A stretch of DNA of 56,626 nt, filler included, from Asterionella formosa (lineage: Eukaryota): assembly GCA_002256025.1 (NCBI GenBank). It is 6 parts of 6 records of this genome, joined end to end, with 100 filler letters (N's around TTAATTAATTAA, not from the genome) between each part and the next. Parts side by side here need not be neighbours in the genome. Positions count along the whole stretch, not along the records: positions 18,946 to 28,298 come from NKIB01010752.1; 5 more parts are not named here. One strand, 5' to 3'. Made by a program: the position numbers and the translations under genes. The notes below the pieces were generated by a model. The model saw only the letters and a program-made list of their open reading frames with translations, did no database searches and was not told the origin of the DNA. This document shows positions 1 to 55,400 of the stretch, one piece after another; position 1 is the stretch's first letter; the number at the start of each line of letters is the position of its first letter.

Positions 1-512
1 TTAGGCCATGCATTGCTTGGGATGCGAGCAAGAGCAAAGCAGCAGAGGATAGTGAGCGTTATCAAGGAATGTTACCTGGTACCTGGTACCAATAGCATGA
101 GTCGTACCCTGGTACCAGTACCGGTAACTTGATATCGACTACCGGGCAGACACGTACCAGTACTGCTCGTCCCGGTAATGATTACACCGGTAGTCACTGT
201 ACCGGTACATACCGGTATACCTGTAGATAATTGTGGACATGGTACATTATCATCAGACATCTTCACAGCCACCGAAATACGTTATAGTTTAGCAGCATTA
301 GTAATTGCTCTGCCTACCCTGGTACTCCGATTATAAGACTGCGCGCAATTTTAGTTTTTCTTTATTTGTTCTACATAAGTGCATTATCGCCTCGTCTCGT
401 CTTCACTTGATCGGGGCTCGCATCGTTTCTTGTTCATTGTTCATGGTTACATCAGAAACGAATATCATACCCACAGCACACATATTTCGACTCTTTCTAG
501 CATACGAGAAGG

Positions 513-3220: not shown

Positions 3221-4270
3221 CTATTTAGGTGATGACAGAAGGTGATGTATGCTATTGGCCACAAATCGACACCCATAACTATCAATGCTTTCGTCAGTGA
3301 TCTCTCTAAAGGAAACAGAAGGCCAAACTGCCACATTATCGGACTCGTGATGAAACATTCCAAACAAGGACATGTGCGACGCGGCATCAAATTTGGATGC
3401 AGACGCAAATTCGCGAATTTTGAAAAGAAACATTGCCATAGTGGTATCTGAAAATCCGTTGCGAGAAGCAAACTGCCCTCCCTCATGTGTATCATGACGG
3501 AGCTGATTCTGCCAACTAGTAAGGCAACAGCCAATGCTTTTGCAATCATCAACGTACCCTTGGACAACCTGAAAACAACCGTTTGTGTGCTTGATAATTG
3601 CCCATTGATGATCCTTTACATCTTGCAACTCGTCGCAAAGTTTGTTGTCCAATTCTCTCGTGTCATGGTTCCTCTTCCTGTCATGGAGAAGTACCCAAGT
3701 CATGTTGCAAAATATGACCCTCGGTAATTCCTCCGGTACATTCATTTTCAAGAGAGTCTCAGACAGTGTTTCTGCTTGTGATATAGCTCGAGAGCGAAGG
3801 ATGCGAGTTGCCAGATTTTCTACTTTATAACCTATTTGGTTTTGCCTCCAAATCCCGTAGAGCACAAGATTCCAATTTTCCCAAACTTGCACTATATCAC
3901 TACCATTGGTATAGGCCAGATGATTGTTTGACGCCATTTGGTTCCTAGAGAAGAATAGGGAAGCGAAGCAGTGGCTAGTAAGGCCACATGATCGCTTCGA
4001 CGAAGAATTGAAGCGTATGGTTTGGTTTGAATTCTTCGCAACAAGACGTTCGAATGCCAAGGGCTCATTTTCAGCGTCATATTGTCCTCCGAGATATTCT
4101 TCAATGCACCTGAATATCTTAAGTGACTCCCTAATGCTGACTCGGGCCTCCGTGGGTGCTAGTTGTCTGCTCCGTAAACCAAATAAAGTTCGCAGCTGGG
4201 AAAAAGTCATATGTCTCGTCTTGGACGTTGCCAGAATTCCAGTATTTGATTGTGGGGTTTGTGTGCGCAT
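3221..4270 (-). CDS. Hypothetical protein, possibly papain-like fold with a Cys/His/Gln triad (start uncertain: ATG 4270 or 4210)
   Basis: Long open frame. The 5' part of the listed ORF (poly-Phe) looks non-coding. Motifs SCGLTS, DHQWAI and FQVVQGY. Confidence 0.65.
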   Translation of the reverse strand: MRTQTPQSNTGILATSKTRHMTFSQLRTLFGLRSRQLAPTEARVSIRESLKIFRCIEEYLGGQYDAENEPLAFERLVAKNSNQTIRFNSSSKRSCGLTSHCFASLFFSRNQMASNNHLAYTNGSDIVQVWENWNLVLYGIWRQNQIGYKVENLATRILRSRAISQAETLSETLLKMNVPEELPRVIFCNMTWVLLHDRKRNHDTRELDNKLCDELQDVKDHQWAIIKHTNGCFQVVQGYVDDCKSIGCCLTSWQNQLRHDTHEGGQFASRNGFSDTTMAMFLFKIREFASASKFDAASHMSLFGMFHHESDNVAVWPSVSFREITDESIDSYGCRFVANSIHHLLSSPK

Positions 4271-4565
4271 CAAATGGATGATGAGGAAAAAGAAAAAAAA
4301 GCAGTCGACCGAAGCAAAAAAATTAAAAATAGAATTGGGCGCGCAGAGACAACAACTCATAAAACACTGTTGCCGGTCAGTCGGCGACTGCGCGACAGGC
4401 AAGACGTTGCAATGTTGCTATACGTAGATCGATACCAATAATCGTGTCTCACTCCTTTACCGGTACCGGTACCCTGGTACCAGGTACTCTTGCCTGAGAT
4501 CTTGAGATGTTCGTGTGGACAGCTTCGTGACAACGATCATGTCGAAAAAGTCTCGCTTACACTCT

Positions 4566-5549
4566 TCATTGTTCTCCTGACATGAAAATACCACAGCACG
4601 TCTGATTTGACAGACAATACCTCCCAAATCTCCTTCGCTGTGGGTTTGTGCGTTTATAGTCTTCCAATAGTAAGGAATCACAAATTCGGTCAAAGAAATG
4701 CCATTCTTCCTCATCCGAATGAATGTATTGATATAGCTTAGCTTCTTTGGCATGCGTATAGTCTTGTTCATTTGACATTTTCCATCCTTGCTCAATAATC
4801 CATTTATACAGCAATCCTGGCACGGCTGATTTCAAGGGTACAAATAAAAATCCTGAGAAAATCCGTTCTTGTTTCCACTCTTGTACAGCAATCCGTTGTT
4901 GTGGTGGTACCGGAGTAATCACTTCCATACCAAAATCGACATATCCCTTGGTCCCACCCAGCGACATCCAGAAGTAGAGTGCCAAATCACGTTGTGCATG
5001 CCGAGGCGCTGCAGTATAAACAGCTAGATCCATGGGAAACGAGTGCTTCAAAAATGTCAAGATTCGCTCCACGTCTTCATCTTCCCATGGCAACCAAATC
5101 ACCCTTTGTCGTCCCTTGTAGTTTGTCATGATTTGTGATTGGTCCTGTACATGGCGCAATGCCTGTCGTGTCTGTGAATTTTCTGTTGTAGCAACGGCAT
5201 ACGAATTGAATATCAGAGGAAGATCTTTTCGAGGGGAAATAGTCGAAGGAAAAAATCCAGTGGCACGTACATAGTACTTGTACGATGGTCCAAAGACAAA
5301 CTCTGGTTCCCATGTGAGGAGCATGACAAGAGTAACAAGGATTGTTACTGCGATTGCGATTGCGATGGCAACCATGTAGATCGTCGTGTTGTCGCTTTTG
5401 ATGACAGTTAACTTGTTAGCCACTTTTCCATTTCTAATGTCTTGCTGTAGTTGCAGTTGGTGTTGCGGTCGTGGTCGTGGTCGACGATGGCGTAATTCAT
5501 TCAAAGTTGTCGTTGTCGTTGTCGTTCGGTCACTTGTTGCTTGATGCAT
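4566..5549 (-). CDS. Type II membrane protein, divergent glycosyltransferase family 32 (Och1/SUR1)-like
   Basis: One N-terminal hydrophobic helix (IYMVAIAIAIAVTILVTLVMLLTW). WEDEDVERIL and RDLALYFWMSLGGTKGYVDFG echo the GT32 motifs W.D.d and D..RY..L...GG.Y.D.D. Cys-rich C-terminus. Confidence 0.6.
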   Translation of the reverse strand: MHQATSDRTTTTTTTLNELRHRRPRPRPQHQLQLQQDIRNGKVANKLTVIKSDNTTIYMVAIAIAIAVTILVTLVMLLTWEPEFVFGPSYKYYVRATGFFPSTISPRKDLPLIFNSYAVATTENSQTRQALRHVQDQSQIMTNYKGRQRVIWLPWEDEDVERILTFLKHSFPMDLAVYTAAPRHAQRDLALYFWMSLGGTKGYVDFGMEVITPVPPQQRIAVQEWKQERIFSGFLFVPLKSAVPGLLYKWIIEQGWKMSNEQDYTHAKEAKLYQYIHSDEEEWHFFDRICDSLLLEDYKRTNPQRRRFGRYCLSNQTCCGIFMSGEQ

Positions 5550-5702: not shown

Positions 5703-6042
5703 GATACATGTGATGATATGTGATACCGGTACACTAACATTCACGTTTGAAAACGAGAACATATCGGTAGTACCGGTAAACCTAACGGAATAACTGCATG
5801 ATACGAAGATACTTATAGTACCGGTAGTAGGAACGTTTTCTTGGGTCTTTGCTACCTGGTACCAGGCACCCTGGTACCAGTTAGTCTACCATATCTATCT
5901 ACCGGTACCGGTTTTCGCTTCCCCAGGCAGATCCGAAATCCATCATTGCATTACACCCCTTGTCCTACCTGACGGTCCCACCAAGTACCATCAATCAAAT
6001 CTGCGCCTTGCTCACATCATCACTCGCCCCCTCCCTTCCATC

Positions 6043-18945: not shown

Positions 18946-20016
18946 CTTTCTACGACTAATCAGAGTTGATTTTTCAACCAAAAAGGGAGTACAAAATCAA
19001 CCGTCAATGCAACCGGGTTGATTTTTTCTTTGTTGTACAATACTGTATTTTCTCGTGATCAAGTACGGAAAAATACCGTCAAGGTATTTTACCATCCGCA
19101 GTAGAACGATACTTGAGGCCTACAGAAAAATACAACCTGGGTTGATTTTTACAAGTAATACCAGGGTACCGGAGCCCTACAGAAAATTACTACTTTGGTA
19201 GAATTTCGTCAATAATGGTACCATGTCCCGAGTAGGACAATACCAGGGGTCAACAGAAAAATACAACTTGGGTTGAATTTTACCAATAACAGGTAGGTAC
19301 CTCCAAGCAAGTTGCATGATGGATGTTCGAAATGCTAGAAAAGCTGCCCATTAAAAGGTACCAGGTACATGTCAAATATACTGAAACCATCTTTTGTGTA
19401 GACCAACAATGGTACAAAATTGAACGCAATTTGCTTTCTACACATTTCTGCGGTGAAAATCATCCACATTTTTCCACCAACAGCCAAAAAAATGAAACAC
19501 GGTACCGGTAGAAGCAATCAAAAATCGCTCCTGACAGGAGAACCGAACGTTCGGAAAAATGTGGACAAAATCCCCGACAGATTTATACCCACCGACCGGT
19601 ACCTACCACCGGTGCTGAAACTAGTTACCAACCATCGGTTCTGAAACTAGATATGTTCCAAATTTGTTTTTCTGTACAGTACTTCCAAGAAGAAGCAAAA
19701 AAATGCCCCAGCTGCCTGTCCAATCATTGCCCGTCACGATGTCGTCACGGGGTCTCCCCAGGACGTTTGAGTTTCTCGAGGCAGGCAGAGCGATCTTGTC
19801 AACCAACACCAGGCGGCATGACAACAATCCTCACTACCGGTACGTAAATAAAACATACTATGTATGGTACTCTGGTACAAAGTACATGTACGATGCACGG
19901 GTATTTGAATACATCACCATCATACCGAACCGGTACATGTGTAGCGATCGTCCAAAGGCAGCAGATCCTTTCTTGCTGCCGCGTACAATCAGGGGACCTG
20001 CCATGCAGCAATCACC

Positions 20017-21167
20017 ATGGTAGCAGGAGCCTCCCACCAGCGGCATTTGGCCCTCACCATCTGCATAGCGCTGTTGCGATTACAGCCCTCTGAAAGCTTC
20101 TCAGTGTCTTCATTGGCTTCAAGGGCGAGAGTGATGACAGTAAGGAATCGCAATAGCAATAGCAATAGCAAAAGCCTGCCGAGTCCATCACGCATGGCGC
20201 TAGTGTCGCTGTCCAGTCATGGCGACGAGGAAGGCGACGCTGTCACTGTGATTGGGAAAGGCACATTACTCGTGGCGAGTGTCTTGCACTTGGAATCGAC
20301 GCTGATCGTGCACGGAACGTTGAAGGTTGCCAAGGTGGAGACTTCGACCAGCAATGACTCGGTCTGTGATGTCACTGTGGGCCCATCAGGGTTGTTGCAA
20401 GGAGATGTGCTCGGGTTCGAGACTGTGCAAGTGTGTGGACGACTTGTAGGAAAAGTCCAATGTGCTCGCCTCATCATTGATGAGCAGGGAGAAGTTGTTG
20501 GAGATGTGCAAGCCGACATTCTGTGAGTTTGTCGATTTCGAACACAGCGTTTCCTTGTGACATGCAGTTTGCCTGTAGCATTACTGCAACCTTGACAATT
20601 TCTCGCATACTCAAACTAAGACTGACTCTTCTTATATCTTTTCTCGTCGTCACACAAATGGACAGTATACTTCGTCCTGGAGGCAGAATTCAAGGGGCCA
20701 TTCATTGCAGTCAAGTTGGGTCGGAGCTCAAGATATTCGAGGAACTCAAGAGGCCACTTCAAATTTCATCTGACTACGCCTCCTCCTCCTCACCTAATCA
20801 TAGAAAGAGAATTTCAATAATGACCAGAGAAAAGGCTGGTGTTGCCCTTCATGCTCGTTCTGACCCTCATCAGCAATTGGGAGTCCAGCCCAACAAGCCA
20901 TCCACAGTGATGGGGAATCCTAACTCACATGAGCCTTCAGCCATATCAAAACCACTTTTAGACCATTTTGGTCATCCATTGATTGGGTCTGCTCCTATGC
21001 ATGATGTGGATGCACTCAGAAAGAATAGGGAACTTGTTCAAGCAACAAGAGCATTTCTAGACAGTGCAATGGCAGTCAAGACCAATGATCAGCATCAATT
21101 TCGTGTAGGCAACACTGACAATGATAATGACACTGACAGTAACCCCCTTCCCGCGTTTTTGCGTTGA
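20017..21167 (+). CDS. Bactofilin (polymer-forming cytoskeletal, CcmA-like) domain protein with a bipartite plastid-type presequence (exons 20017-20522, 20666-21167; 335 aa)
   Basis: Beta-helix pattern TVIGKGT..LIVHGTL..VTVGPSGLLQGDV..VQVCGRLVGKV..LIIDEQGEVVGDV..ILILRPGGRIQGAI. The intron at 20523-20665 (GTGAGT..ACAG) restores the last winding in frame. Confidence 0.82.
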
Positions 21168-22488
21168 AAGAGCAGGCAGCATGAAGGTTTTTTTGTAACA
21201 ACTAGATTTTTACTTGATATATGATTGTTGTGTTCTAATTTAATTAGCCCCTGAAGCCATGGGCTGTAGCTACAAAGTAATGCTGCTTTACTTTGCTCCT
21301 TTTTGATGGTTAGGAACCCTGCATAAAATCTGCTCAGCTTTGAAACTAAAGTTGTTGTATTTTTGCTTCTGCTGCTACATCAATGACCCGTATCATCAGC
21401 AGAAGTACAAACTGGCATGACTATTCATTTAATTCTCAGAATGCCAATCTGGATTAGGAGGACTTTTCACCAAGACAATGTAATTTTTGGTGCAACTGAC
21501 CTACCGGTACTGTATGTATTAGTGAAGTAGCACAAACTCTCACTTTGTTACTGTTCAAAACCATGCTAGACACCCACATCTACTCCAAAAAATGTCAGCA
21601 TGATGGACAATGACCATGAGCATGTATATGCATGGTCACCCTCACTGGTTGAGGCAGGACAACAAGTCCTATACAAGTGGAGCAATCACTATATTGGAAT
21701 GCTCAAAATGGACAATTCCTATCCTATGAAGTATGTAGGTCCTCAAGAACCTCCTAGCCAACCTTGCCTTTCTGAACTATCTGTATTACAATCTTGGTAT
21801 ATTACAACAAATCGATTTATAAATTCATTATACCGGTATACTGTCACGTGTCTGCTCCGAACAATCGAAATCCGTGCTGAAACGGCTCCATACAATTTTG
21901 TGTATAGAATGCATATCGTACAATTACATAGCTACATACCGTTAGCTACTCCAAATAGCAAGTAAACTACCGGGAACAGCATGAGTAACTCGGGTAGCCA
22001 GCCGTTGGTAGTAATTTGAAATGATTGGCCGTTTGTTGCTTCGCATGTGCTTACATGAATGTATTAATATTTTTATAATACTGGTGTATCCAATCAGGAT
22101 TGGCTGGATGCCACCAATGCATATTGCTCGCTCGGCAAGTAGAAGAGCGTTATATTTTAAGTTCCTGGGTTTGGCATGCTACTCTGGAATATACCGGTTC
22201 CGCTTAGTGCAATCGGTATATACGTAGCTATCATTAGGAGACTACCAGTACCGGCACGACTCCTAGCATGACCTGCTTACCGATACTTCAATTCCTTGTT
22301 CTTTCTGCCTCGCTCGTCACTCCAAAGAATAATTCAAATTACAACCGTATGTAGAGCAGCTACCGGTAGCTATGTACCAGTAGGAGCTGTCTTTTCTTGA
22401 CGATACATTCTGGGTAAACTACATAAAACACCTTGAGCAATCTCATTTGCTTCCAGTTCTTTGACAGCAGCTCTTTGCGCCGCCAGCC

Positions 22489-26903: not shown

Positions 26904-27284
26904 GATCGCATTGTCTTTTTTCTTCTTTCGATATTGTGTGTCCAATCAGGAATGAGAACGCACTATATATTATACCGGGAGATGCGGCAAGAAGGTCTGC
27001 CTTTGGCCGGCGAAAAATTGGCTGGATTCGGCCTTGCCATGTACCGGTGGCTATTTACATACCGGTATACTGGTATATCATATCATATGTATTAATTATA
27101 GACAGACCCTACATCTGAGCGTACTGGTAGGTATCGGTCGTCGTCCTTGGATGTGTGGGTGCTATCGCTCGTTTTCCGATAGGAGGCGGCCTTTCGAAGT
27201 AAGGCTACAGCTATTATTCCCTACTCAGCTTCGGTACCGATAATCCTGTCCAAAACCTCTTGAGGAAAATGGCTATAGGGTAGA

Positions 27285-27515
27285 TAGGGTACCAGATACC
27301 TGGTGGTAGACTACTGGTACCAGGTACCGTACCGGTGCTCATACAATACCAGGTACTGGTACCAGGTAGACTGCCAGGGTACCGGGGTACAACGGCGACT
27401 CGGCGACAGTAGCCTACCAGGTACCGGTATGTAGTATACCGGTAGGTCCATACGAGGATTATATAGCAAGGAGTATCCTGTAACGATCTACTGGAACCTG
27501 GTACCAGGTACCAGC
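27285..27515. repeat. Low-complexity cluster of GGTACC/ACCGGT/CCTGGTACCAGG motifs
   Basis: Dense run of ggtacc, accagg and accggt words. Confidence 0.7.
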
Positions 27516-28205
27516 AACGAATTCATATCATCCGAACAGGCCTCGTGACGACGCACCTTGCGGATCCCCCCAAGAAAATGCAAAGGATCCGCCCGCCCCC
27601 TCAATTGTGACTTTCCTCACCTTTCTCCACATCCGGGTTCAAAGTAGGGACTTTGTCTCCTGCTATACCTAATTCCTCGTATGGTGCCGTATATTCTAGT
27701 TATTACCGCTACCTACCTAAACCTGGTAGAGTATGGTAGGTTGAGTACCTGTTACATGGTACACGGTACATACCATGGTGGCTTGCTTATTACCTATGAC
27801 CGGTACCAGGTACCAGGCACCACCTAAAAACGGCTTTGAACCTCCATTTCACTACTTTCGATCGATTGGTACAACTAAACACTGAAATACTCATTTCAAT
27901 CCTCTTATTAGACATCTTATTAGATGCTCCAGATGTTAATGAGAGGCGGGGGATTATGATTGGACAAACAATTCAGCCAGATTCCATTGAAAACAGAAGA
28001 TATGAATGTACATCTAAGCCGCGTATTACGTGAAGTGACCATCACGTAAATAAGCCTAGTTGATTTTGAATGCATCACATGAATTAGTTGAATACATCAA
28101 AATACGTAGTTGAACATGTCTATATATTATCTGAATACATCACGTTAAATATTTGATCAAAGTATCATGCATGCATTCCTGATCATCACTATATTATGTG
28201 ATCAC

Positions 28206-28398: not shown

Positions 28399-29817
28399 AT
28401 GTGGTTGAGAATAAGTATCTTCATTGCTTTGGTCCATCTTTCTTTGTCTACTTCGCAACAATTATGTTAAAGTATGTATTGCCATTAGTGGAGACCAAAA
28501 TGCAATGCATTCAAGATTTAATTGCCTTTCTTTTTTCCTTCCTGCAAAGATGTTTACAAACAGAAATTATAGTGGTACATCAAATATGTTGAGCCCACTC
28601 AATTTCAGAAATGAATTTGCGTGGGTTCATGTTCCTGTTTCAACAAACAATAAAGGAGGACCCACATTCCCCATAATATCAATCTTGTATCCTTGATTTA
28701 TGCAAGGCATTCTCTTGTCAACACGAAAATCAATCCTCTCAATTCCAAGACTCTCTTATCAATTGTATCATTTTAAATTTCTTCCAAATGGATCAAATCC
28801 TTCTTGTACTTTTTGTTGAAACCTATAGATGTATTTCTCCTTTCCTTGTTTTTTGGTTGAAACTTGTTGTAGACAGTACTCACCTCGGCAAGCTTTCGGC
28901 AATTCTGACAAATTGCCACTTCATGTTCAGACATGGCATTGGATTTATGCTGATGGGCAAGTATTACCTTCAGTGCCTTGCTTGTTAGTATTGTTATCAT
29001 TTGTCATGTTTCTTTCTATTCTTCGTTCTCCCTTCATCACTGAAAATCAATTGCAAGTTTCCAACAAGCTCATGGAACATGGAACGAATGGTACTACAAA
29101 TGTAAAACAGCCAAGTCCTTGTCGTTTTGCTTGGTGACGCTGGTTCCTACCAGTACGATAGTTGACAATTGCCCATACACACATGATACTTACGTAATTT
29201 GCATCGAAGCGCATAACACAGATTCCATTAGGACAACTACCGGTACTACGTGTGTAAAATGCCACGAGAAAACAGCTACCAGAAAAAAACGGACGTTCGT
29301 CCGGTATTCCCCTCAAATGATCAAACTTCACTCCAAGTTCAACATAGTAGTACTATATATACCGTGTTAAATTATAAAATGGGAATGAACGGAAGTTCAG
29401 ACTTCGGCCCTACTGTCCGAACATTTCTAAGAAAATCAGCATAAGTGTCTGGTAGATGTCTGACGATGATCTTCACTATTACTTCAACCGAGAAATCACT
29501 AGCTTCACCGTGTTCGTCTTGATGATCAACAGTTCAATCATTTTCTCAAATACCGGACGATTGTCCGTTGGAGGTAAACGGAATCCTGGTACTTTGTCCG
29601 GTACTGTAGAAACTGATGATGTTTGTGAGGGATGCACCAGCCGTTTCTATTTGAGTCTTGTATACTAAGATATTCATCGCTCAATAGTTTACCGGGAATA
29701 GTACCGTTATACTGGTGCAAAACAAATATCATCCACAGACGGGTACAGCCGTAAACCTTCATCTTATGACTTCTGGACAAATTATGTAATCGCTGTTTTT
29801 ATCAGCAGAAGCGCGAG

Positions 29818-31823: not shown

Positions 31824-33252
31824 TCATCACATGAGAAATAGAAAATCTTCTTTTGGGTTAGAAATGAAGTAAAAAATGAGTTTCAGTGGAGATGTATGCA
31901 TTGTTGTTGTAGTTGTACTTACACAGCAGCAGGCAACATTTACTTTGTTCCATCACACAATCGAAGAGAGAAGTAATACAGAAAAGAACGAAAAAGCTGA
32001 ACCCAAGCAATTGAGATCTGCATCGTTGTGTAGTGTAGATAATCTGGTTGCTGCCACCATGCACACATCTGTAGCTAGCCTGACACAAGTAGCAGGAGTC
32101 GTGCTTCCGCCCACAGTTATTCCTCCCACCAGACACAAACAACCCTGATCATTCCATGATTCCATTCCATTCTATTCTGAGCAAACACGATCGCCAGGCT
32201 GCTCCACTTTTGACCTCTAGCTGAATATTGAGACATAGATTGTGATACAAACTCAATACATTGTCAAGGCCGACAAATCCATTGACAGGACATTTAGGGT
32301 TAGCAAATGGAACCCAGATTCAAGAATTGGTTAATTTATCAGGAATAGATTTTGGGTACTCTACAAAGTCTTCAATTGCATCTGCAGGTACTATTCAAGT
32401 GAAGCTGATACCAGGCTTAAGAGCGACAATAAGGGACTCGCATCACTCATTGTCTTAGTAGCAACAATGCGAATTCTGGCTAGGGATGATGTACCTTTCG
32501 ATTCACTTGAGGAACTGGAATCAGCAGGAGAGAAAAACAATACCAACATGATCTGAAGGAGACATTCCCACCCAGGTAAGTTTGCAGACTTGGCCAACGT
32601 GATTGCATCCATTTGCTTGATTCTTCACTTTAATGATGTCTGCCAATGTCATTGTATCAATGCAGCTCTCTTCCTCTCATTAACAAGATCCACAATTGTT
32701 GATTGCTTTCATTCCACTGCCTGCCTCTTCACATTCTTCCTTGGAGGATCACTACTGGGTTCGAATTCCTTGGGAATTGAAAAATTTAGTACATTTCCAT
32801 AATGGTAGTCTAATAGAAGGCTATGATATTCTTGATTACATGATATGATGTGTAATAATATCATGATACCTGCAACATATCGGTACCTATTCTTATGTTC
32901 TGAACGTACGTTCATCCATCCGTGATATGTCCCGAATGAGTCCCTGCCACCAAAATAACTTTCATCCTCCTCGTTCGGTCATCAGCCATCGGCAGCAAAA
33001 TGTACACCGCCAGTAACGGTATGCTGATTTCGAGTCATCGAACTGCCCATTCCCAACATCATCGTCGTTATTATCCTTTCTCCTGTTATTACATACCGCC
33101 TCATCTCCATAATACATATGTATGTAAATCAGTATACTCATAAAGTGATTATAATCAAGCAAAGGCGAAAAGTAACAACTGCATTTTAACTAAACAGGAA
33201 TTGCCATCACCAACCCACCCTACGAACAATAACAAACCAAGGAGAATCAAAA

Positions 33253-36200
33253 ATGGCGAAACGAAGTACAAAAGCTAAACGCTCCTTGCAGGCCTTGCCG
33301 AAGGGTTTGCCAACAAAGAAGCGAGGGCATAGTACCGGTGGTGGTAGTACGGATATCAATCCATTTGACACGAACTCTCGGACGAAGAAACCGAAGCACG
33401 ACGTGCATAATCGTTTCAAAACCAAGTCACCAACCACCTCCAAATTGGCGCAATCCTTGTCTCGTCGACAAGAACAAGTTCAGCAACATTATCAAGATAA
33501 ACGTAAAGTCAATTCATTTATGGATTTACGAATGGGTGAATACGATGCCACAATGACGAAAGACCAACAACTTATGAATCGATTGGTGAAGGAACGTGCG
33601 CAGCGTTCTAAAAAGCATTCTAAATATTCACTTGAAGAGGAACAACCATTGACTCATGGAGGCAGAACCATTACGGAACAATCAATAAAGAATCATGTTA
33701 TTTTAAGTGACGATGAAGATGGTGGTGGTGGGAACTTGGAGGCCATGGATACAGAACTTCATTTTGGTGGTGGCAATCTTACCAGCAAAAGGAACAAGAG
33801 CAACAACCCATACGGTCCATCCGACACGAACATGGATTTAACGCAAGTTTATACTCAACGGAAAACGGAACTGGATGATTTTATTGCAAGACGAAAAATT
33901 GCAAAAGCAGAAAAGCTGCAATCAAAAGAACAACAAGCAGATGCATTTGGCACTATGGATGATTCTTTCAAGGAATTGGCACAATTGCTGCATTTTAGGG
34001 ATAAGAAACAAGAGCGTACGGAACGAGAATCTTTGAAAGCGCGGGGGCTGCTACCTCAGGAAGACCAAGAAATGGCTGATTGGGACAAGGAAATGAAGGA
34101 ATTCTTATTTCACAAAAAAGTCAAGGCCACGGATCGAACCAAAACACCCGAAGAAATGGCCAAGGAAGAAGCTGACCGCTTGCATAAATTGGAAACAAGA
34201 CGTATGGCTAGAATGAATGGAGACTTTGATGACGACGAGCTTTCGGATATATCTGGAGACGAAGGAAAAAACAAGAAGAAATATATTAAGAAACCATCAA
34301 AGAACGCAATGGCAACCGCTGAAAAATTAGACGATTCAGAGGACGAACAAGAAAAAGATCAAACCAAGGTTCGGTTCACTTCCGAAGGACTTGTTCAAAT
34401 TGATAAGGACGGCAATGTTGTTGGAAAAGTTGGAGAGGAAGAAGGATCAGATGAGTCGGAACAGGAGATTGATGAAGACGAGGAAGATGACGACGACGAC
34501 GACAACGCTGACAGTGATGGAGAGGACTTGCCAAAAGAAAAGGAGCTTGAGGGATACGACTCTTCTATTCTCTTGCCGATTGGAACCAGAGTTAATGGAA
34601 ACTATCGTGTCAAGGAGCAATTTGGCGAAGAACCCAAGTGGTACGCTGGCAAGATTACAAAAGTGAACAAGAACAAGGATAAAAGCTTCACTTACAATAT
34701 CGAATATGATGATGGGGATTTTGAAAATGAGATGGACCCTGAGAATGTTCATCCTCTTGCGAAGACAGCCCAGGAAAGCGACGCTGAAAGCAACCAGCTT
34801 CATGACGACTTGACTCTGAAAGAGAAGCGACAAAAAGCAAAACTCAAGGCTAGGTAAGTTACATTTGCTTTTTTTCTATATCGCTCAGGTGTTTGACAAC
34901 CAAAATTACGCGCACTGTGAAACCCTTGACACTGGTGACCGGAGATTCTAGCCGAACGTCTTGTTCAGCTTTATCTCCCGCGGCTGGTTGTGTACTCCGA
35001 GATTAATGCCTATGCCTCATAGTACCCTCGAAACGATTTTTTCACTTTCCGGTGTCTCCTTGGTTACAACATTTTATTTTCACTAACACTCTACAACACA
35101 CTCAGACAAGAAATGCCATATGTCTTCGAGGTGCCCACAACACTGGAGGCTTTACACGATATGATTGGACGATATGCTGCCACTGGGAATGAAGCATCTC
35201 TTATCATTCATCGTATCCACGCATCCAACTCGGTTCGACTCAACAAGAGAAACGGAGAAAAAATGCAAAACTTTTATGATGTTGTATTGCGACGCTTTGT
35301 GGCAGTCGGCGATGCGATTTATTCGTCTGGAGATGGTGGACCGGAACTTGGTCGGTATGAACAGCTCAACGCCTTGACTAAGGTGCTATATGGTATGTCA
35401 CAAGATGCACCCGAGTCTGCTGGTGCCGTGTGGGGCCGCCGTTTGGGGGTGATTCAGAATGCTCATGCCAAGCGGCTACGGGATGCAGATTTTGTATCGC
35501 CAGAGGACGACAATGACGACGACTTCATCACGGCATGGCCATCCACTGGAGTGATCCTCCTGCTCAAGACTGTTGGTCACATCTTTCCTGTGACTGATCT
35601 TCGGCATCAGGTCGTGACTCCCACCATACTGTTGCTTGGTCAAATGTTGGCGCAAACTCCAGTTAGATCAGTGCATGATTTGGCAATGGGCGTTCTATGT
35701 TGCGGCCTCATGATTGAGTATACGAAAGGAGCCAAGCGTATTTCTCCCGAGGCCCTTGCGTTCCTCGCTAGTGTTTTGCGACTTTTTGCTCCGTTCGCAA
35801 ACAAGACTCCTGTTCCTACTATAGAGGCAGCTTGGCAAATTCCTGAATTGAAGTCTCTACGCAAAAGTCTAGAAGGTATGGACTTGGATGGAATTCCAAA
35901 ACTGTCCCTAGAACGAGATTCCATTCAAGAACCAATCACGGCAGCTGGTGTATTGGCGTCTGCCCTGGAACTGGTGGAAGTTTCGGCAGAAGCACTCAAT
36001 GAAGCGTTGGACAATGGCGAATCAGAAGCTTTTGCCGAAGTTTGTTCTGCACTCTTGGCTATAAAGGCCAAATCAACGAATATGCCTCTCCCGAATGCTC
36101 TTGCCAACAAGGTGGTTCAATGCGCAAGTGCTGTTTCAGAGAGTATTGCAGGCGCCCGACAACCTCTTCAACGCAGGGCAGCACCTGAAAAAGAAACCAT

Positions 36201-36570
36201 CAAGTCACTTGCTCCTCGCATGGAAGATCCATCAAAGTATACTTTCTCTAAGGACAAGGGCAAATCCGCGAAACAAGCTGAATTGGACCGAAATCGCCGA
36301 GAATATAAGCGTGAACACAAGGCTGTTTCTCGTGAGCTTCGATTGGACTCTGTCTTTGTGGAGAAGGAGCGTCGCAGAGAGAAGGACAGCAAAGACCAGA
36401 AGGCCAAGGACAAGCGAAACAAAAATTTTGCCTGGTTGGAAGGAGAACAGGCTGCTATGAATCAACAAGTCGCTCAAGGTGGTGGTTTGCTTTCTGGTGG
36501 AGGAATGGGAGCTGCACGAGCAAAGGCAAGGAGTGGAAAAATGGGTGTCAAAAAGGGTGGCAAACTCTAA
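33253..36570 (+). CDS. NOP14: Nucleolar protein NOP14 (40S biogenesis) with a Tudor-like insertion (exons 33253-34853, 35106-36570)
   Basis: Motifs NPFD, FMDLRMGE, LTHGG, ATDRTKTPEE, LETRRMARM, MPYVFEVP, FPVTDLRHQVVTP and KREHKAVSRELRLDS. The intron at 34854-35105 (GTAAGT..CTCAG) keeps the frame. Confidence 0.95.
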
Positions 36571-37019
36571 CCATCATAGGTCCCAGTCAATCGAGTTGCC
36601 TGAATACCGAGAGTAGACCCATATGTTGGTGAATACTGTAACATTGATTCCTGATAGTAAGGATTTCCTTATTTTCTCCTGCCATTATCAGTACCCATCG
36701 TGTGTGTACCAGAGTTTAGCTGTTCCAAACATTATTCTGTCATTATATATTGAACCCTTTCTCTGGACTGCGTGAATTGATGATGCGAGGACCAGGCGAA
36801 GCTAGAAAAGTGAGGTTTCGCCTTTGCAATGTATATACCCAGTAGCCATGGCGTAGAAGGCATAGCTGTACGAGATGCAACATGAACGGAAAATGATGTT
36901 GATCCTATGTGTTTATCTTTTTGTGTACCGGTACACACATCTGAACATATGTTGGTTCTCAACCCAGGTACTTTTTGCACAAACAAACTTCATAGCAAAA
37001 ATGCACTACATCATTGCCT

Positions 37020-38965: not shown

Positions 38966-40000
38966 ATGGTGTCGTCATATCAGTGTTTCTTTGTTCTCGC
39001 CATCTTTTGCTTTAGCATACCAGTAGCGCGAGGATTCACCGTCTCTACAAATCCGATTCCGGTGTCGAGCAAAAGAAGTGAAACTGTATGTGCATTATTT
39101 CAGGACGGAATTTTGTACGACGAGCCTGTCTTTCGCCCCCCAGCAGAGTGGCGCTCATTGATTTTGCAAGTCACAATTGGCTGCAGTTGGAATAAATGCA
39201 CTTTTTGCGAAATGTATCAGACAAAAAAGTTTAGAGCAAAACCTTTGGATCAGGTTGAACTGGAAATTAAGGCGTTTGCTGCTGAATCTGGAAATGTCAG
39301 AGATATATTTCTGGCCGACGGCGATGCCATGACGTTACCCACTAAGCATCTCTTGGCATTGTTGGGGCTGATAAATCTTTATCTCCCCGAAGTGAGACGG
39401 GTATCCAGTTATTGCTTACCAAGAAACGTAGCTCACAAATCTGTGGAAGATTTAACAATGTTGAAAGACGCGGGTCTGTCCTTGGTTTATGTAGGATGTG
39501 AAAGTGGAAACGATACTGTTCTGAGTGCAGTGAACAAAGGAGAAAGTTTTCATTCATCAATCAATGCTCTCACAAAATTAAAAGAGGCTGGAATCAAACG
39601 TTCTGTCATGATTTTACTCGGCTTGGGAGGTCGTAAATTATCCATGCAACATGCCCTATCATCAGCAGAGTTGTGCAGTGTATCATCGCCAGAGTTTCTA
39701 TCCGTGTTGACAACCTCATTCCCACGAGGTATGAATCGGATAGATGCAGGATTTGGTGGGGATTTTCAGCCACTAACCGCTCGCGAAGCATTATTGGAAC
39801 TTAAGACTTTTCTGGAAGGCATTGACATAGCCACCAACAAAACAATATTTCGAAGTGATCACGCGTCCAATTACTTGGTTTTGAAGGGTCGTTTAGGAAG
39901 GGATAGAGACACGATGATAAGTGAGCTGACCGCAGTTTTGAACGACCCAGAGGAGGACGACTTTTACAAATTGCGTCCAGAATGGGCAAGAGGTCTTTAA
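38966..40000 (+). CDS. Radical SAM protein with a bipartite (plastid-type) presequence
   Basis: CxxxCxxC motif in GCSWNKCTFCEMY; also FLADGDA, VYVGCESG and FRSDHASNYL. The signal peptide ends ARG-F. Confidence 0.92.
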   Translation: MVSSYQCFFVLAIFCFSIPVARGFTVSTNPIPVSSKRSETVCALFQDGILYDEPVFRPPAEWRSLILQVTIGCSWNKCTFCEMYQTKKFRAKPLDQVELEIKAFAAESGNVRDIFLADGDAMTLPTKHLLALLGLINLYLPEVRRVSSYCLPRNVAHKSVEDLTMLKDAGLSLVYVGCESGNDTVLSAVNKGESFHSSINALTKLKEAGIKRSVMILLGLGGRKLSMQHALSSAELCSVSSPEFLSVLTTSFPRGMNRIDAGFGGDFQPLTAREALLELKTFLEGIDIATNKTIFRSDHASNYLVLKGRLGRDRDTMISELTAVLNDPEEDDFYKLRPEWARGL

Positions 40001-49673: not shown

Positions 49674-52600
49674 AGCAGAGCAAACAGTCACCAACCACAT
49701 AACTGCTTGCATATAACTGTGAATTTGTCAGCCACAAGACCTTTTGTAAAGATATCAGCAAGGTTGGCTACAGTATCCACCTTGACAATTTGAAGAACTG
49801 CAGAAAGGACTTATTCACAAAACCAATGATAAGCTACAGCAATATGCTTAGTATGAGGAGTCATCTTTGGCATAGTAGCTTGGGACAGGCATGCACTATT
49901 TTCTTCATAGACCTTTGAAAAAAGATCTAACAGCTGAACCTTTACCAATGTATAGGGCTGTTGATGCTTCTTCAATGATATGATGGAGAGGAATGAGGTC
50001 CCGACAACTGGCAGAAAGAGCCTGATATTCTGCTTCCATTGTAGATAGTGCTGGGGTAGTTTGTAATTTTGACACCCAGAGGAAGGGAAATTCAGCAAGG
50101 GCAATGTCATAGCCAGTTCGAGAGCAAGAACAGACTGGATCAGTAGAGTCTTCTGAGCCAAAGAGCCCAACAAAGTCGCTGTCACAAAAACATTCAATAA
50201 CAAAGGCATCAGGAGTAGGAGTAAAAATAATTCCTTGATCTAAACTGCCTTTAAGATACCAACAAATTTTCTTTACTGCTATTTCGTGAGTAGCACAAGG
50301 ACAATGAGAAAAGCGAGCACACTGATGAACAGCAAAAGTAATGTCAGGACGAGAATTAGAGGCCAAGTAAAGTAGCATCCCCACTACAGACCAGTAGTTC
50401 CATGCTTCAATTGTAAGCAGACCATCCTTATCTGTTCCTAGAGTCTCCTTATTGGCTGGAGTAGAGCTAGCCTGACAGCCTTCGAGGCCAGTAGCTTGCA
50501 GAGGAACACGCTTAATCAGACCCTCTTGCGTAAGTTTAAGTGAACCGTTTTCAGTTGATTTGCTAATTTGGATGCCCAGAAAAGCAGCTAGATCTCCCTC
50601 TTGAGTCAATTCTAGGTCAATAGCCAAATTTTCAATCATAGCATTAATCTTGGTTCTAGCATGACCAATGAGAATCGAATCATCCACATATACCAGGTAG
50701 ACCATGTCAGCGTGAATAAAAAGGCATGGGTCTAACAATGACTGTGTGAAACCCCGTTGCTCGAGACATTCCTTCAACTTTAGGAACCAAGTCCTAGGTG
50801 CCTGTTTTGTTCCATACAATGATTTATTTAACCGAAGTACCATACCTCTCCCCCTGGGATCACCAAAATCTTTGGGCATTTCAACAAATACCTCTTCATC
50901 AATGTCTGCTTGACAGAAGGCATTACTTGCAAGGTTTAACACAATGGACATCACCAGTAAAGCACAAACAGTGGACCATTGGACAGCCGGAGCATATGTC
51001 TCAAAGAAGTCCACTCCTTCAACTTGCAGATCTCCGCATACACAAAACCGAGCCTTGCATTTATGTAAGCTGCCATCTGGAAACAACTTACGTTTGAAAG
51101 CCCAAATACCAGGTAATATATATTTTACCCTGAACTGATAGATGTGTCACTAAAGTCCAGGCTTTCTTTGATGTGAGAGCAACAATCTCGGTGACCATTG
51201 CAGCTTTAAAAGATTCATGATCAATGCTAGCCATAGTTTCATGGTATCTAGGATTATCTGGGTCATTTCGATGTGCCATTGCAGCATAGACAAGTGGGTT
51301 AGAACACTCCAAGAGACCTGTTGTTGGATCTGTCGTAACAGCAGCCAGGTATGCCGACTCAGAGTCAAAGCCATGGCTGTCACATAGGCAAGGTGGCCTT
51401 CAGGGACATAACGAGTACCAAACACGCCAAAGTTTGTCCTGATACTATGGCGAGGTGTAGAAATTGCAGTTGGTTTCATGCTAATAGAAGTTGTGTGAAC
51501 AGGTGGAGTTGGAGGTACCTGTAAATTTGAGGTAAAAATAGTGGGCAGATCATAGGCAGGAATTGCTGGTTCAGTAGAATGAACAGCCATAGGAATATCC
51601 TGAACATCAACTGGGAGGATATAGGTAGTAGGGGGACCACTCTGAACAACCACAGCAGAGCCAGAGGTAGATGTACTAACAGCAGGCTCTTTATGGGCTG
51701 AAGGAGCCACCACAGTAGGCAGGGGAACCAGAGGAAAGTCCCTCTTATTTGTTGGCAATTCATCCTTAGGTATATTCATATGAGGTAAGATTTTTGCTTG
51801 TATCTGTTTGTGATGTTGAAAGACATTTTGTTCACTGGAAGTTAACCAATCACCATGTAAGGAAACTTGTTCGTGTTCATCAAATTCAGTATGAAACCGG
51901 GATTCATGAAATAACTTTTCCCAGTGACCTGGAGGATCATCAGAATCAGAGATGGACATAACAATGGTAAAGTAGTCATCATAAACCACGTGAAACTTAG
52001 GTGATATGGTACCTGTTTTTAGGTTCAGTACTAGGGGGACATTGCTACTATGAGAAGGAGAGATTCCTATAAAAATCGCACAACGAGATTTAGGTTGCCA
52101 ACAAGGGAGTTTATGACCATTCTGTAAAGTGGGGTCCAGTACATAACAAGGGCAACCCCAGACATGAAAATCTTTAATTCCATGATGAGGTACAATGGTA
52201 CTTGTGAAAATATCAAGGGGGGATTGACCAGATTTTGGGTTCGGCATATGGTTGTATATATGGACATCATAGTCAACAGCCATGGGCCAGAGGGAAGTAT
52301 CAGCAGTTTCTGGCCATCGTAGGGAGGCATGGAGCATCATTACTCTAGCCATGTTTGAGACTGTATGAATGCTACTTTCAGCAGTACCATTTTGATGATG
52401 AGCTCCAACCTCCCAATATTTCACAATTTGACCTTTGGCAGAAATTTCACTGGTAAATTCGCGAGCGCCAAAAATGCCATTATCAGTAGTATATTTTTGA
52501 ACTAAGACAACTTGATTGTATGCCGAATTTTCGAAATGCATTTTCGAATGAATGGTCTCTTCTGAAGTAAAGCTGATTCGATGAATAACATAAAGTAGTC

Positions 52601-55400
52601 CAGATGCATGGTCAACAAAAATAGAACCAGCTTGGCCTTTATAAGTTGAGGCAAGTTGTGATTTACCTCGGGAGGTGTATAAACGACCTGGCACCTTTGA
52701 TTCAAAATGATCCACTGAGACACCTGAACCTGGGAATAAATCATTAAATTTTGAAACTCCCTCCCTCTCAAGTGAAGGTGTAGAGAGGTTACATGCAAGA
52801 GGACGACGATGGGCCTTGCCATATTCAGAAGCTGCACATTTGGGTGGAGTGCAACAGGCAGCAGCACAGACCTTATGACTTTTGCCAAAAGAAGGTTGAC
52901 AAAGAAGCCATTGAATAATAATAGAATTAAGATGTCCAAGACGAAAATGTCATCAAAGATATTCCTTTTGAGCCTCTGTGAGATTTTGGTTTACCTCCTC
53001 TTTGACACACAAGTTAACTTGAGGGGAAGACACGCCATGATGTAGGAGGATAGCTTCGCTGGTTGGTAGCCCATTTATAGGGTCATAGGGAACAGTGAGA
53101 ATGGGCGAGTCATCAAGTAAGAGTTGGGCATGTGCTGAAGAGATCACAAAAGTACCACGGACATTTTCAGTAGGACAAAAGATTTTCTGGGGAGAACAAA
53201 GCAAGCGTTGTTTGCAGGTAGGGACATAAAAGGCCTTTAAATGAAGAGTAAGGAGGGTGCCATTATCAGAATAGAAAGACCATTTGACAGTTCCAAGTCC
53301 TTCCACAACCATACCAGAGGCGATGCCGCCAAGTAACAAAGGAGTAGAGGGAATAATCATTGGGCCAATAAAGTCAACAGAGTACCCACTGACAGGACAA
53401 GTGACACCAGTGTCCCAGATGACAGAAAAACTTGCAGTGATGTAATTGGAATCAAGGAATGCCAAGGAAGGTCCTTCATTGATGAGAAAGACACTTGGGC
53501 AGTCATAATGTGTCATTGATTCAGAGTGGGAGCACAAACAGTGGGCAGTAGGAGGCTGAGGAAGAACCAAACCAGATGAGGCAAGAGAGGAGTGGTGAAA
53601 GTGTAAGTCCAAGTCCGATGGAGACATTGGATTGACAACACTATTGGAATGGATGCCAAAGCTAAACAAAAAAATTATCTTCCTCAAGGGAATGATCATG
53701 ATGAGTTAAGTCAGGAGGTTTACTTAGTGAAGGTAGGATATAAGCTTCGTCTTTCTCAAGGGAAAGATCAGGATGAGGTAAGTCAGGAGGTTTACTGAGC
53801 AAAGGTACTAGGACATGAGCAGTTTTGTATGTAGAGACAAAAACTGCTTGTGTAGGCCTGGAGCTATGTTTTTCTCTAGGACGATGGCCAACAGAAACAC
53901 ATTTCTGTTGGCAGGTTTGTCAGGTTGGGACCACAGTATCAGGAGTTGCAGAAAAAATTTGACAAGGAAAGGCTGTCACAGGGATAGTAGCAATTGAAGA
54001 CCAATCGAAATCATGGTCACAGCAAGAAGCAACAAAACCAGCAGGATTGTACATCAAAACACCATCTTCTGCTGGAGACTCCTTGGCAACTCTAGCTAGG
54101 TTGGCAGCAGCAGTAAAGGGAACAGTTTTGGGACTCCTTTTGTGAGTCTCAGTGCCATGAGTAGTAGACCGACGCCCTTCCCCGTCACAGCATTTGTTGC
54201 ACCAATGCCACTGGCAACCATCTTTGGACATAGAAAACTTTCCATCAGTAGGAGGAATGTTTCGCCAAGAGATCTCAGGGTAAGTGGTTGTCTTGTCAGG
54301 AAAGTTAGGACAAAGATGACCAATTTTGCCACACTTGTAGCAAGTAGTCTCTGAGGTCTTGGCCAGCCCCACTGGGCTTGGTCTCAAAATCTTTGCGGAA
54401 GGGCTTTAAGTTCATCAGCAAGGGCTTGTTGAAAAGCAGTAGGAAAAACTGTAGCCTGGAATGCATCTGGTAGGGAATCTGACTGCTTCTTGGGAACATT
54501 TTGGGAAGGTGGCCATCGTCCATTGTCAATGAGACTTTTGTACTGAGTGAGTGCCATATCAAGAAGTGTCTTGACACCACTTGGTGTAGCTTGGAATTCG
54601 AGGGCCGCATTATCTTTGCCCATGAGATCCCGCTCTTCAGTATCAATCTTGACAGAGGTTGTATAGAATACAGCACGAGATTCCTCAACTTGACAGAGTA
54701 AGAGCTTGGTAGCAACAATGCTGGAGGCAGTGATAGGAAGACACTGTCCACTCTTTAGTAAGTTAAATGAAGCTTGGATATCATGGACCATGAGGCAGAC
54801 ATTTTCGCCAGGGTAATCAGAAAGTTGGATTTTCTTAAAATTTTCCAAGATGCTATCCATGGTCTGAGGTGAACCAGAGGTGACTTCATCCATTAAGGCC
54901 ATCCAGAGGAGGAGGCCTGGAACACGATTGCCATAATCTTCAAGACGTCCAAGGAGACCTGTTAGGAGGTTTGGGGAAATGTAGGATACAATCAGACGCC
55001 AGAGGTGGGAAGAATCATCCAATGCCTGATCATCAAAAATCTGAAGTGACTTGTTGGTGAGAGAATCAGCTGTGGGATTTCCAGTTTTAGTGTCAATGTC
55101 TGGTGTGAATATCTCAAGACCAATACAGTGATCAACATATTTCTTTGTCTTGTCAAAAGTAAGTCAAGTATGGTGTGTGGTCATACACCAAACTTTACCA
55201 GAACTGTCAGGAGCATAGAGGAAAGTATCCACACCACCAGTCTCTGCATCATTGTAAAAAAGAGTGCAGAGCTGAGCAAGAGTGAGATTGTTGATAGGGT
55301 CACCATTGGGGCCATTGTATACCTTTTCATGTTTTTGAGTAAAAAATTCAAATGCAGTTTTCGTCTGCCAATAGAAACTATCATATTTCCATGATGCATC
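49390..55400 (-). mobile_element. Degenerate, 5'-truncated Ty1/copia LTR retrotransposon (CoDi-like)
   Basis: Domain order gag (zinc knuckle CYKCGKIGHLC), protease (IWDTG), integrase (FVDHAS, TDNG, HHQNG.AE), RT (KARFCV.GD, LYG.KQAPRTW, YVDD), RNase H (CDSDF, STMEAEY, TKHIAV.YHW, DIFTKGL). Broken by frameshifts and stops. No 5' LTR found. Confidence 0.95.

Follow-up and report, generated by a model that had tools for sequence, protein, structure and literature searches.

The closest described relatives of the protein reported here are the bacterial bactofilins, represented by BacA of Caulobacter (2N3D) and TtBac of Thermus (6RIA/6RIB). These proteins consist of a PF04519 domain, a right-handed beta-helix of about 100 residues, with disordered tails. 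In the accessible text of a preprint on this family, the membrane motif of bacterial bactofilins is N-terminal and is made of a hydrophobic doublet and a basic residue (bioRxiv 10.1101/617639). The same text reports eukaryotic bactofilins in stramenopiles and ascomycetes, and shows that PiBac (PITG_07992) of Phytophthora infestans forms filaments in vitro (Deng et al., bioRxiv 10.1101/617639). A 2024 paper, as far as its accessible part goes, states that functional studies of bactofilins are so far confined to bacteria (PMC11459167). Here we describe a bactofilin gene from Asterionella formosa (assembly GCA_002256025.1), an alga of fresh waters whose plastid is of the complex red type. The gene lies at positions 20017-21167, on the plus strand, of a stretch of 56,626 nucleotides (nt) joined from six records of this genome. 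We call this whole stretch the window. The reading we favour, with a confidence slightly above even, is that this nuclear gene encodes a plastid-imported bactofilin scaffold, whose tail would sit on the membrane anchors of FtsZ.

Compared with BacA and TtBac, the protein has the same domain, the same type of helix, and disordered tails. Nevertheless, it is encoded by a nuclear gene with an intron inside the domain. An N-terminal presequence, apparently for import, replaces the membrane-binding motif. The C-terminal tail, of about 145 residues, includes a helix that is conserved and, at its end, a peptide of the FtsZ type. The short N-terminal membrane-targeting motif, typical but not universal in bactofilins, is not present; the only hydrophobic doublet with a basic residue of this kind is C-terminal.

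Oomycetes, the group of PiBac, have no plastids. Like PiBac (compared by description), the window protein is a case of a bactofilin domain kept in a eukaryote, expressed, and presumably functional. The account of PiBac is silent on targeting to organelles, and neither "diatom" nor "plastid" appears as a word in its accessible text (bioRxiv 10.1101/617639). A search of full-text literature found no plastid or algal bactofilin; subscription journals and preprint supplements (the eukaryotic hit lists of 10.1101/617639) were beyond its reach. Three features would be new here: the compartment predicted for the protein (the plastid), a eukaryotic family whose genes bear an intron, and, in a protein that is not FtsZ, a tail that resembles that of FtsZ.

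The coding sequence has 1008 nt, including the stop codon, and gives a product of 335 amino acids (aa). The features of the coding region are the following.

20017-20522, plus strand: exon 1, which ends in phase 2.
20017-20097, plus strand: signal-peptide-like part, aa 1-27, MVAGASHQRH-LALTICIALL-RLQPSES, from hydropathy.
20098-20223, plus strand: transit-peptide-like part, aa 28-69, starting with Phe, from composition.
20233-20522, plus strand: part of the bactofilin beta-helix encoded by exon 1, aa ~73-168 plus 2 nt of codon 169, from PF04519, AlphaFold2 and VIA-align.
20523-20665, plus strand: intron of 143 nt, GTGAGT...CAG (GT..AG), phase 2, with RNA joints in the runs X1, X2, and X5.
20666-21167, plus strand: exon 2, which resumes in phase; stop codon TGA at 21165-21167.
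20666-20726, plus strand: last winding of the beta-helix, aa 169-189, ..LILRPGGRIQGAIHCSQVG.., from Pfam coverage and structural alignment.
20727-20966, plus strand: linker predicted to be disordered, aa ~190-269, from a predicted local distance difference test score (pLDDT) below 50 for residues 159-223 of the database protein P0020.
20967-21104, plus strand: conserved tail block, FGHPLIGSA and then a long helix, aa 270-315, ..DVDALRKNRELVQATRAFLDSAM.., from the model and tblastn.
21147-21164, plus strand: C-terminal LPAFLR, the core of an FtsZ-type peptide, after an acidic run, from the C-termini of the family and the comparison with FtsZ.

The splicing of this gene is supported by RNA. This evidence consists of assembled contigs, not reads, from lake and freshwater metatranscriptomes, mapped over 19700-21500. 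It indicates presence only, not level. The joint from 20522 to 20666, which skips 143 nt with GT..AG borders, occurs in the contigs of X1 and X2 (study P1) and X5 (study P2). So, the exact junction is present in three of four runs and in two of three studies. The start at 20017, the junction 20522/20666, and the end at 21167 had been given by a first-pass annotation of this DNA, which asked for this RNA check; all three positions proved exact. The contig of X6 (study P3), with RNA from a strain 95-99% alike, retains the intron, as does one small and shallow contig of X2. Stops appear when the intron is read through. The spliced junction ..VQADIL-ILRPGG.. is also held by the database proteins P0001, P0020, P0023, and P0025. 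Several studies have polyA libraries in which the gene is expressed.

The neighbouring open reading frames (ORFs) are of nuclear type: a HECT ligase, an HSF-type factor, STT3, Nop14, TruD, a carboxylesterase, and a retroelement. Together, the RNA-confirmed intron and the eukaryotic genes on either side show that the gene is nuclear, as the first-pass annotation had argued. The same points bear on the idea that the frame is open by chance, is a pseudogene, or comes from contaminating bacteria. By far most bactofilins are prokaryotic, and the relatives of this protein bear the JGI label "cytoskeletal protein CcmA (bactofilin family)". Against this idea stand the intron spliced in RNA, the eukaryotic flanks, and the polyA expression in several studies. 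Moreover, the intron site is kept in relatives that likewise adjoin nuclear-type genes (the DDB1-type neighbour of locus L003 was read by eye). We give this explanation a negligible probability; as far as sequence can tell, the confirmed intron and the nuclear-type neighbours exclude bacterial contamination. No second bactofilin copy was found in the window by tblastn with 10 family proteins.

The identity of the domain rests on profile and fold. Exon 1 alone matches PF04519 with an E value of 6e-7 (30.1 bits, positions 2-82 of 98 in the profile). The spliced protein P0020, which is the window product starting at Met40 with one substitution, reaches 2.5e-9 (37.7 bits, positions 2-97 of 98). 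The Pfam cut-off for this family is 27.9 bits, so the match expected by the first-pass annotation was obtained over nearly the full profile. Because profile positions 82 to 97 are covered only in the spliced form, the intron lies inside the domain, whose last winding is encoded by exon 2. PF04519 is the only Pfam domain of the window protein; there is no tubulin/FtsZ GTPase domain. Pfam gave no match on exon 2 alone at E values up to 1, and NCBIfam gave none on either exon.

We modelled P0020 with AlphaFold2 on a 30-row alignment of the family. The model has 126 residues with a pLDDT of at least 90 and places the beta-helix at residues ~34-150 of P0020. In agreement with the proposed fold, this is a right-handed three-sided helix that superposes on the solved bactofilins. 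VIA-align against 6rib_A, the subunit of the Thermus filament, gives a Z score of 17.3 and a root-mean-square deviation of 1.3 Å over 100 of 101 residues. BacA (2n3d) follows with Z 15.1 and the crystal form of TtBac (6ria) with 14.4, while the next row, an unrelated protein, has 12.9. The structural alignments to bactofilins show 17-26% identity. In Foldseek, bactofilin entries take ranks 1, 2, and 6, with weak E values (0.02-0.3), as is usual for solenoids. A profile made of eukaryotic sequences only (A2) found 2n3d (E 1.7e-4) and 6ria (E 9.5e-3) as its first matches among the PDB sequences. The profile with five bacterial rows added gives 5.6e-18, a value biased by those rows. Bactofilin clusters of the ESM Atlas score 0.88 for P0020, which we take as a lead only. 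Thus, by profile and modelled fold, the window protein is a true bactofilin with a helix of six windings. Residue F105 is described, in the accessible text of the preprint, as part of the C-C interface of TtBac (bioRxiv 10.1101/617639). The hydrophobic residue Ile177 of the window protein (I138 of P0020) falls at about this place, as estimated from the ends of the aligned ranges (37..145 and 12..112 of 6rib), not from a residue alignment.

The N-terminus contains a second set of features. A basic n-region is followed by the core LALTICIALL, of 10 residues, with a 9-residue Kyte-Doolittle mean of 2.87. Then come ..QPSES and F28. All the signal-peptide cleavage sites, SES/F28 included, were assigned by eye (the slash marks the site). 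Residues 28-69 have 14 Ser and Thr, 6 Lys and Arg, and no Asp or Glu, and the model gives this stretch a pLDDT below 50 (disordered). The hydrophobic signal with Phe at +1 after SES and the Ser/Arg-rich stretch free of acidic residues, both noticed in the first pass, are therefore borne out by these values. An (AATAGC)3 repeat at 20152-20169 encodes Asn-Ser units within the transit-like stretch. The number of these units differs among the alleles P0001, P0019, P0021, P0025, and P0026, always in frame.

In red-type complex plastids, a signal peptide, a Phe, and a hydroxylated stretch without acidic residues form the bipartite signal for the stroma. The first residue after the cleavage, in the so-called ASAFAP motif, is aromatic (mostly Phe) or Leu. 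The window protein resembles these presequences in its hydrophobic core, small residue, Phe, and hydroxylated basic stretch free of acidic residues. This is not a single case, given that the pattern recurs across the family. In all five homologue loci, a hydrophobic core precedes NNA/F, SHA/F, VSA/F, CEG/F, or VNG/F. All the 22 family proteins with at least 55 residues ahead of the helix have a hydrophobic core, with values of at least 1.99. The residue right after that core is Phe in 16, Leu in two, and unclear in four. Among the 16 cases with Phe there are AAA/F and a literal ASA/F, as in P0036, which reads ..TASAFSIS... The pattern of the presequence is thus kept in the family while its sequence is not. 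One subgroup has Pro ahead of the Phe (..SPA.PF..), an uncommon feature at the site of a signal peptidase. From these features, we infer that the product is imported into the plastid stroma.

Part of this evidence could also be explained by a signal peptide alone. In that case, the protein would be a beta-helix that is secreted or associated with the wall, and its destination would be the endoplasmic reticulum (ER), the periplastidial compartment, or the exterior of the cell. The hydrophobic core present in every member with a long N-terminus is consistent with it. Many secreted proteins are beta-helices, with adhesins and ice-binding proteins among the weaker fold matches, and cysteines are conserved in the family. 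However, Phe stands directly after the core in 16 of the 22 proteins and in the five loci, and a Ser/Thr/Arg-rich stretch without acidic residues follows. In diatom import, that combination marks stromal cargo, not periplastidial or secretory cargo. In addition, no partner of an FtsZ-type tail is known outside the stroma. We consider this explanation by a signal peptide alone quite unlikely.

Another ORF of the window, at 38966-40000 (plus strand), carries a radical-SAM domain (PF04055, E 6.6e-20). It begins with a signal-peptide-like core, ..PVARG/FTVST, and a Ser/Thr-rich stretch, and it is a second candidate for plastid targeting in the window. The likewise start of this gene (ARG/F) suggests that the organism uses such signals.

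The presequence is only translated if the start codon is the one at 20017. The start region and the flanks of the coding sequence contain the following features.

19992-20016, plus strand: probable 5' untranslated region (UTR), from the start of the spliced polyA contig of X2.
20003-20023, plus strand: upstream ORF MQQSPW, 6 codons, out of frame, overlapping the main start, with its stop at 20021-20023, inside the leader of the shortest RNA contig.
21168-21224, plus strand: 3' UTR as covered by RNA contigs; the spliced contigs end at 21177 (X1), 21204 (X5), and 21224 (X2).

The ATG at 20017 is the first one in frame after the in-frame stop at 19942. Its context, ACCATGG, has an A at -3 and a G at +4. 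In X2, the spliced polyA contig spans 19992-21224, and there is no cover in the bin 19883-19943; a separate shallow contig of this run lies at 19700-19833. We found no convincing ORF in 19700-19992, where RNA contigs extend upstream. The contig of P0023 is open from its first base: it begins with VTGVQTCALPIS and continues with the window sequence from ~20001 on. We take this prefix to be a translated sequencing adapter.

If translation began at Met40 or Met60 instead, the product would be a cytosolic bactofilin without signal peptide, and the upstream frame would be a 5' leader. Automatic calls indeed begin at Met40 (P0001, P0019, P0020, P0025) or at Met60 (P0018, P0022). The upstream ATG at 20003 and the contigs that extend far upstream agree with this alternative, and the same cytosolic state is assumed for the oomycete bactofilins. 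Nevertheless, those starts come from prokaryote-style callers on environmental contigs, and the length variation of the presequence is always in frame. The orthologue P0027 and other members keep an N-terminus with a signal peptide plus Phe or Leu, despite the unrelated sequence there. The first-pass annotation had named a downstream Met as the start that would undo its reading. Because the ATG at 20017, with its A at -3 and G at +4, lies within polyA RNA contigs, such a start is not favoured. Apart from a possible isoform it is unlikely, and we regard the cytosolic alternative as very improbable.

The family to which the window protein belongs is small. A phmmer scan that went exhaustively through 1.84 billion representatives gave only 17 proteins at E values up to 0.001, P0027 being 62% identical to the window protein. 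A profile search gave 33 proteins; 19 of them have E values up to 4.9e-17, and the rest start from 4.3e-7. These numbers, with the gap between the E values, indicate a small and distinct clade. Its members come from JGI/IMG, ENA, Logan, and MGnify (environmental), and the few that bear a label are called "CcmA (bactofilin family)" or "hypothetical protein".

The site of the intron is conserved. Among 35 fetched family proteins, 23 stop exactly where exon 1 of the window gene ends (..GD[VI]xxxx[LMV]). Six of the others are bacterial-looking, and the rest are spliced, fused, cut short, or slightly extended. In the four genomic loci on metagenome contigs (L002-L005), a GT donor in phase 2 is present at the same codon (AT/GTAAGC, GT/GTAAGT, TT/GTAAGT, and AT/GTGAGT, where the slash marks the exon end), and the remainder of the protein lies in another frame. 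It is this donor that makes the family proteins end at the last residue of exon 1. L001 is a copy of the L003 gene that resembles a cDNA, with no intron. The family has been overlooked in part because most of its database entries are exon-1 fragments from prokaryotic gene finders, labelled CcmA.

The gene of L003 has on one side an ORF that shows MYND-type features and repeats, and on the other a minus-strand ORF (3803-5356) that looks, by eye, like a splicing factor or DDB1. The same convergent neighbour is found 3' of the bactofilin gene in L001-L004, and the window does not have this neighbourhood. P0016 (491 aa), a relative of the family, joins a bactofilin domain to RGS and globin domains (PF04519, PF00615, PF00042), with no signal peptide and no stop at the intron site.

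We built a phylogenetic tree with IQ-TREE (LG+G4, 89 columns, 44 rows). Its bacterial rows are those pulled in by the eukaryotic profile, and it has no oomycete or brown-algal sequences. The window protein groups with P0027 with a support of 99. There are two more groups of eukaryotes, one of them also at 99. The split between eukaryotes and bacteria has a support of only 53-60, and no donor can be named.

The tail presents two conserved elements beyond a disordered linker. The first-pass annotation described it as a long low-complexity tail. This holds for most of residues ~190-265, which are modelled as disordered, but not for a confident helix block and a conserved C-terminal motif. The helix H241-276 of P0020 has a pLDDT of 89-95 in the block. 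The tail of P0030 matches the window by tblastn with an E value of 1.9e-9 over 85 aa, and the FGHPLIGSA segment with its helix also occurs in P0030, P0039, P0045, and L001-L004.

The window protein ends in ..NPLPAFLR, behind a stretch of low model confidence (residues 279-287 of P0020, pLDDT below 50). Other full-length lineages end in VPAFLR, LPRFLQ, IPSFLQ(HS), FPSFLQ(S), MPSFLR, or MPSFLR(RKYF). An ending of the LPAFLR type is kept in all eight full-length lineages of the family that we have seen. In the window protein and its alleles, as well as in P0030, P0039, and P0045/68/69, the distance from the pattern [LIVMF]P.FL[RKQ] to the last residue is 0-2 residues. MPSFLR(RKYF) closes L001-L004, and the RKYF extension is present in L001 and L003. 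Elsewhere among all the stored proteins, the pattern occurs only in the tail of E. coli FtsZ. This protein, in the annotated K-12 record, ends in ..DYLDIPAFLRKQAD, with IPAFLR at the place of LPAFLR.

The corresponding tail of FtsZ has been studied in detail. In the accessible text of three papers, it is conserved across a wide range of bacteria and binds ZipA, FtsA, MinC, ZapD, ClpX, and SlmA, with I374 and L378 as critical residues (PMC4117426); "PAFLR" defines the bacterial FtsZ C-terminal domain (PMC8178401); and the core IPDFL is common to cyanobacterial FtsZ, red-algal FtsZA, and plant FtsZ2 (PMC11285052). In the last source, the Phe of IPDFL is key for the binding of ARC6, the cyanobacterial and red-algal C10 peptides bind membrane too, and the supplement gives cyanobacterial tails ..DIPEFLQRRRP and ..DIPDFLQRRRPSR (PMC11285052).

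At the level of sequence, the phi-P-x-F-L-[R/Q] ending of the family matches the proteobacterial and cyanobacterial versions of FtsZ, at the same extreme C-terminal place behind a flexible linker. The end of the FtsZ of E. coli is ..DIPAFLRKQAD and that of cyanobacteria ..DIP[DE]FLQRRR... Like FtsZ, the window protein would be a polymer-forming protein of bacterial descent with a disordered linker and a hydrophobic-Pro-x-Phe-Leu-[Arg/Gln] end. Unlike FtsZ, it would carry this peptide on a beta-helical filament protein that uses no nucleotide, not on a tubulin-like GTPase. Most members also have no basic run after the motif; RRKYF is present only in L001 and L003. The partners of FtsZ are found in the compartment indicated by the presequence, which adds to the weight of the motif. 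A phmmer search of the last 30 residues against the PDB sequences gave no match at E values up to 10, as expected for a motif of 6 residues. A word-based search with tail residues 215-296 returned only the protein's own clusters and is uninformative on whether the module occurs in other proteins.

The favoured reading can now be set out as a series of steps. The product would have a signal peptide, a transit-like stretch that starts with Phe and has no acidic residues, a beta-helix of six windings, and a long tail. The presequence would take it across the outer membranes, which derive from the ER, to the plastid stroma, and would then be removed. There, the beta-helices would stack end to end into non-polar filaments independent of nucleotides, like those of bacterial and oomycete bactofilins, as family and fold suggest. 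With the N-terminus used for import, the attachment would have shifted to the C-terminus. This shift makes sense whichever way the terminal motif is read, because the N-terminus would be taken up by import. In cyanobacteria and in the plastids of red algae, the FtsZ peptide with this core attaches to the inner membrane as well as to the anchor Ftn2/ARC6. Finally, the terminal peptide might hold the filament at the inner envelope, on the anchors of FtsZ, as a scaffold or a competitor at the plastid division site; this is the least certain step. Our confidence falls in the order of stromal import, end-to-end polymerization, and C-terminal attachment to the inner envelope or the FtsZ anchors.

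A more specific version of the last step is that the protein forms a second, nucleotide-independent filament of the plastid. In it, the N-terminal anchor would have been exchanged for an FtsZ-type peptide that plugs into Z-ring partners of the ARC6/Ftn2, MinC, or SepF type, and the filament would work as a scaffold or buffer of division. We put this forward as a tentative possibility. If true, it would be the first filament other than FtsZ in a machinery of plastid division, and a natural example of a bacterial cytoskeleton that took its docking peptide from another.

The ending with Phe-Leu and a basic or amide residue could have a simpler origin. The protein may be imported into the plastid, with its FL-R end being the membrane-targeting sequence of bactofilins in a new position. 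It would then be a general scaffold on the envelope, the girdle lamella, or a thylakoid, with no link to FtsZ or division. The ..FLR and ..FLQ endings fit the membrane motif described for bactofilins. Since FtsZ-type C10 peptides bind membrane themselves, according to the accessible text on those peptides (PMC11285052), membrane binding alone could explain the conservation of the motif. Nevertheless, the conservation goes beyond a hydrophobic doublet. The Pro two residues before the Phe and the hydrophobic residue that precedes it are kept in all the full-length lineages, and the kept positions are those critical for the FtsZ partners (I374 and L378 in E. coli). On balance, we consider such a relocated membrane motif unlikely. 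The FtsZ-type tail points to division or membrane anchoring rather than to a pyrenoid scaffold.

Several observations weigh against the reading of a plastid-imported scaffold on FtsZ anchors. At the N-terminus, the hydrophobic core has a short length of 10 residues, and an Arg comes next. Gene callers start P0001 and P0020 at Met40, and the out-of-frame ATG at 20003 sits even in the short leader. The contigs of X1 and X6 run more than 290 nt upstream of the start codon, to before 19728. There may be a long leader with several upstream ATGs, or a neighbouring or unannotated transcript, in that region. In the domain, the window protein does not have one of the two cysteines kept by most family members, and its subgroup, with P0027, is divergent. 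At the C-terminus, the motif has just 5-6 residues, and its likeness to FtsZ was recognised after the sequence was seen. When the window is translated in six frames, two matches to the loose pattern are found where 1.03 are expected; for this reason, the weight of the motif rests on its position and conservation.

A plastid structural protein of another type offers a further comparison. The PyShell of diatoms and haptophytes has two parallel eight-stranded sheets with an internal two-fold symmetry and forms a sheet lattice, according to the accessible text of its preprint (bioRxiv 10.1101/2023.10.25.564039). Like diatom PyShell, the window protein would be a plastid-targeted (here by prediction), beta-rich, and self-assembling structural protein. 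Unlike PyShell, it has a three-sided bactofilin helix, and its best fold matches are bactofilins. A kinship between the two was considered and rejected: the fold descriptions differ, and no PyShell entry is found among the Foldseek and VIA-align matches listed, an absence that is not proof.

Until now, eukaryotic bactofilins have been a curiosity, with filaments formed in vitro by one oomycete protein and no known role. A conserved and expressed family with plastid import signals would place a bactofilin in an organelle for the first time. The FtsZ-type tail gives a concrete and cheap hypothesis, that of anchors shared with FtsZ. The division of secondary plastids is poorly understood, and much of the primary production in waters comes from the algae that have them. 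A new filament component in this division would open a route through localisation, knock-out, and tail-swap tests like those in the accessible account of FtsZ tails (PMC11285052).

Some other features of the window were recorded. The Nop14 profile extends over two ORFs at 33190-36570 (plus strand), at profile positions 6-394 and 428-861, with a Tudor-like match on the first ORF; this gene is presumably split by an intron. On the minus strand, 49905-53705 contains three adjacent long ORFs, one with an SH3-like domain of retroviral polymerases (PF25597, E 7.1e-7), and is probably a retroelement of the copia/Ty1 type. The heptamer CCGGTAC has 37 sites on both strands, compared with 1.99 expected (standard deviation 1.45; 0 of 100 shuffles reach 37). 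It clusters at 4460-4472, 5726-5911, 19502-19936, 27041-27800, 29240-29598, and 36925-36934. The sites are mostly intergenic, and four of them are just upstream of the bactofilin gene. This heptamer might represent a promoter element, or else a dispersed repeat.

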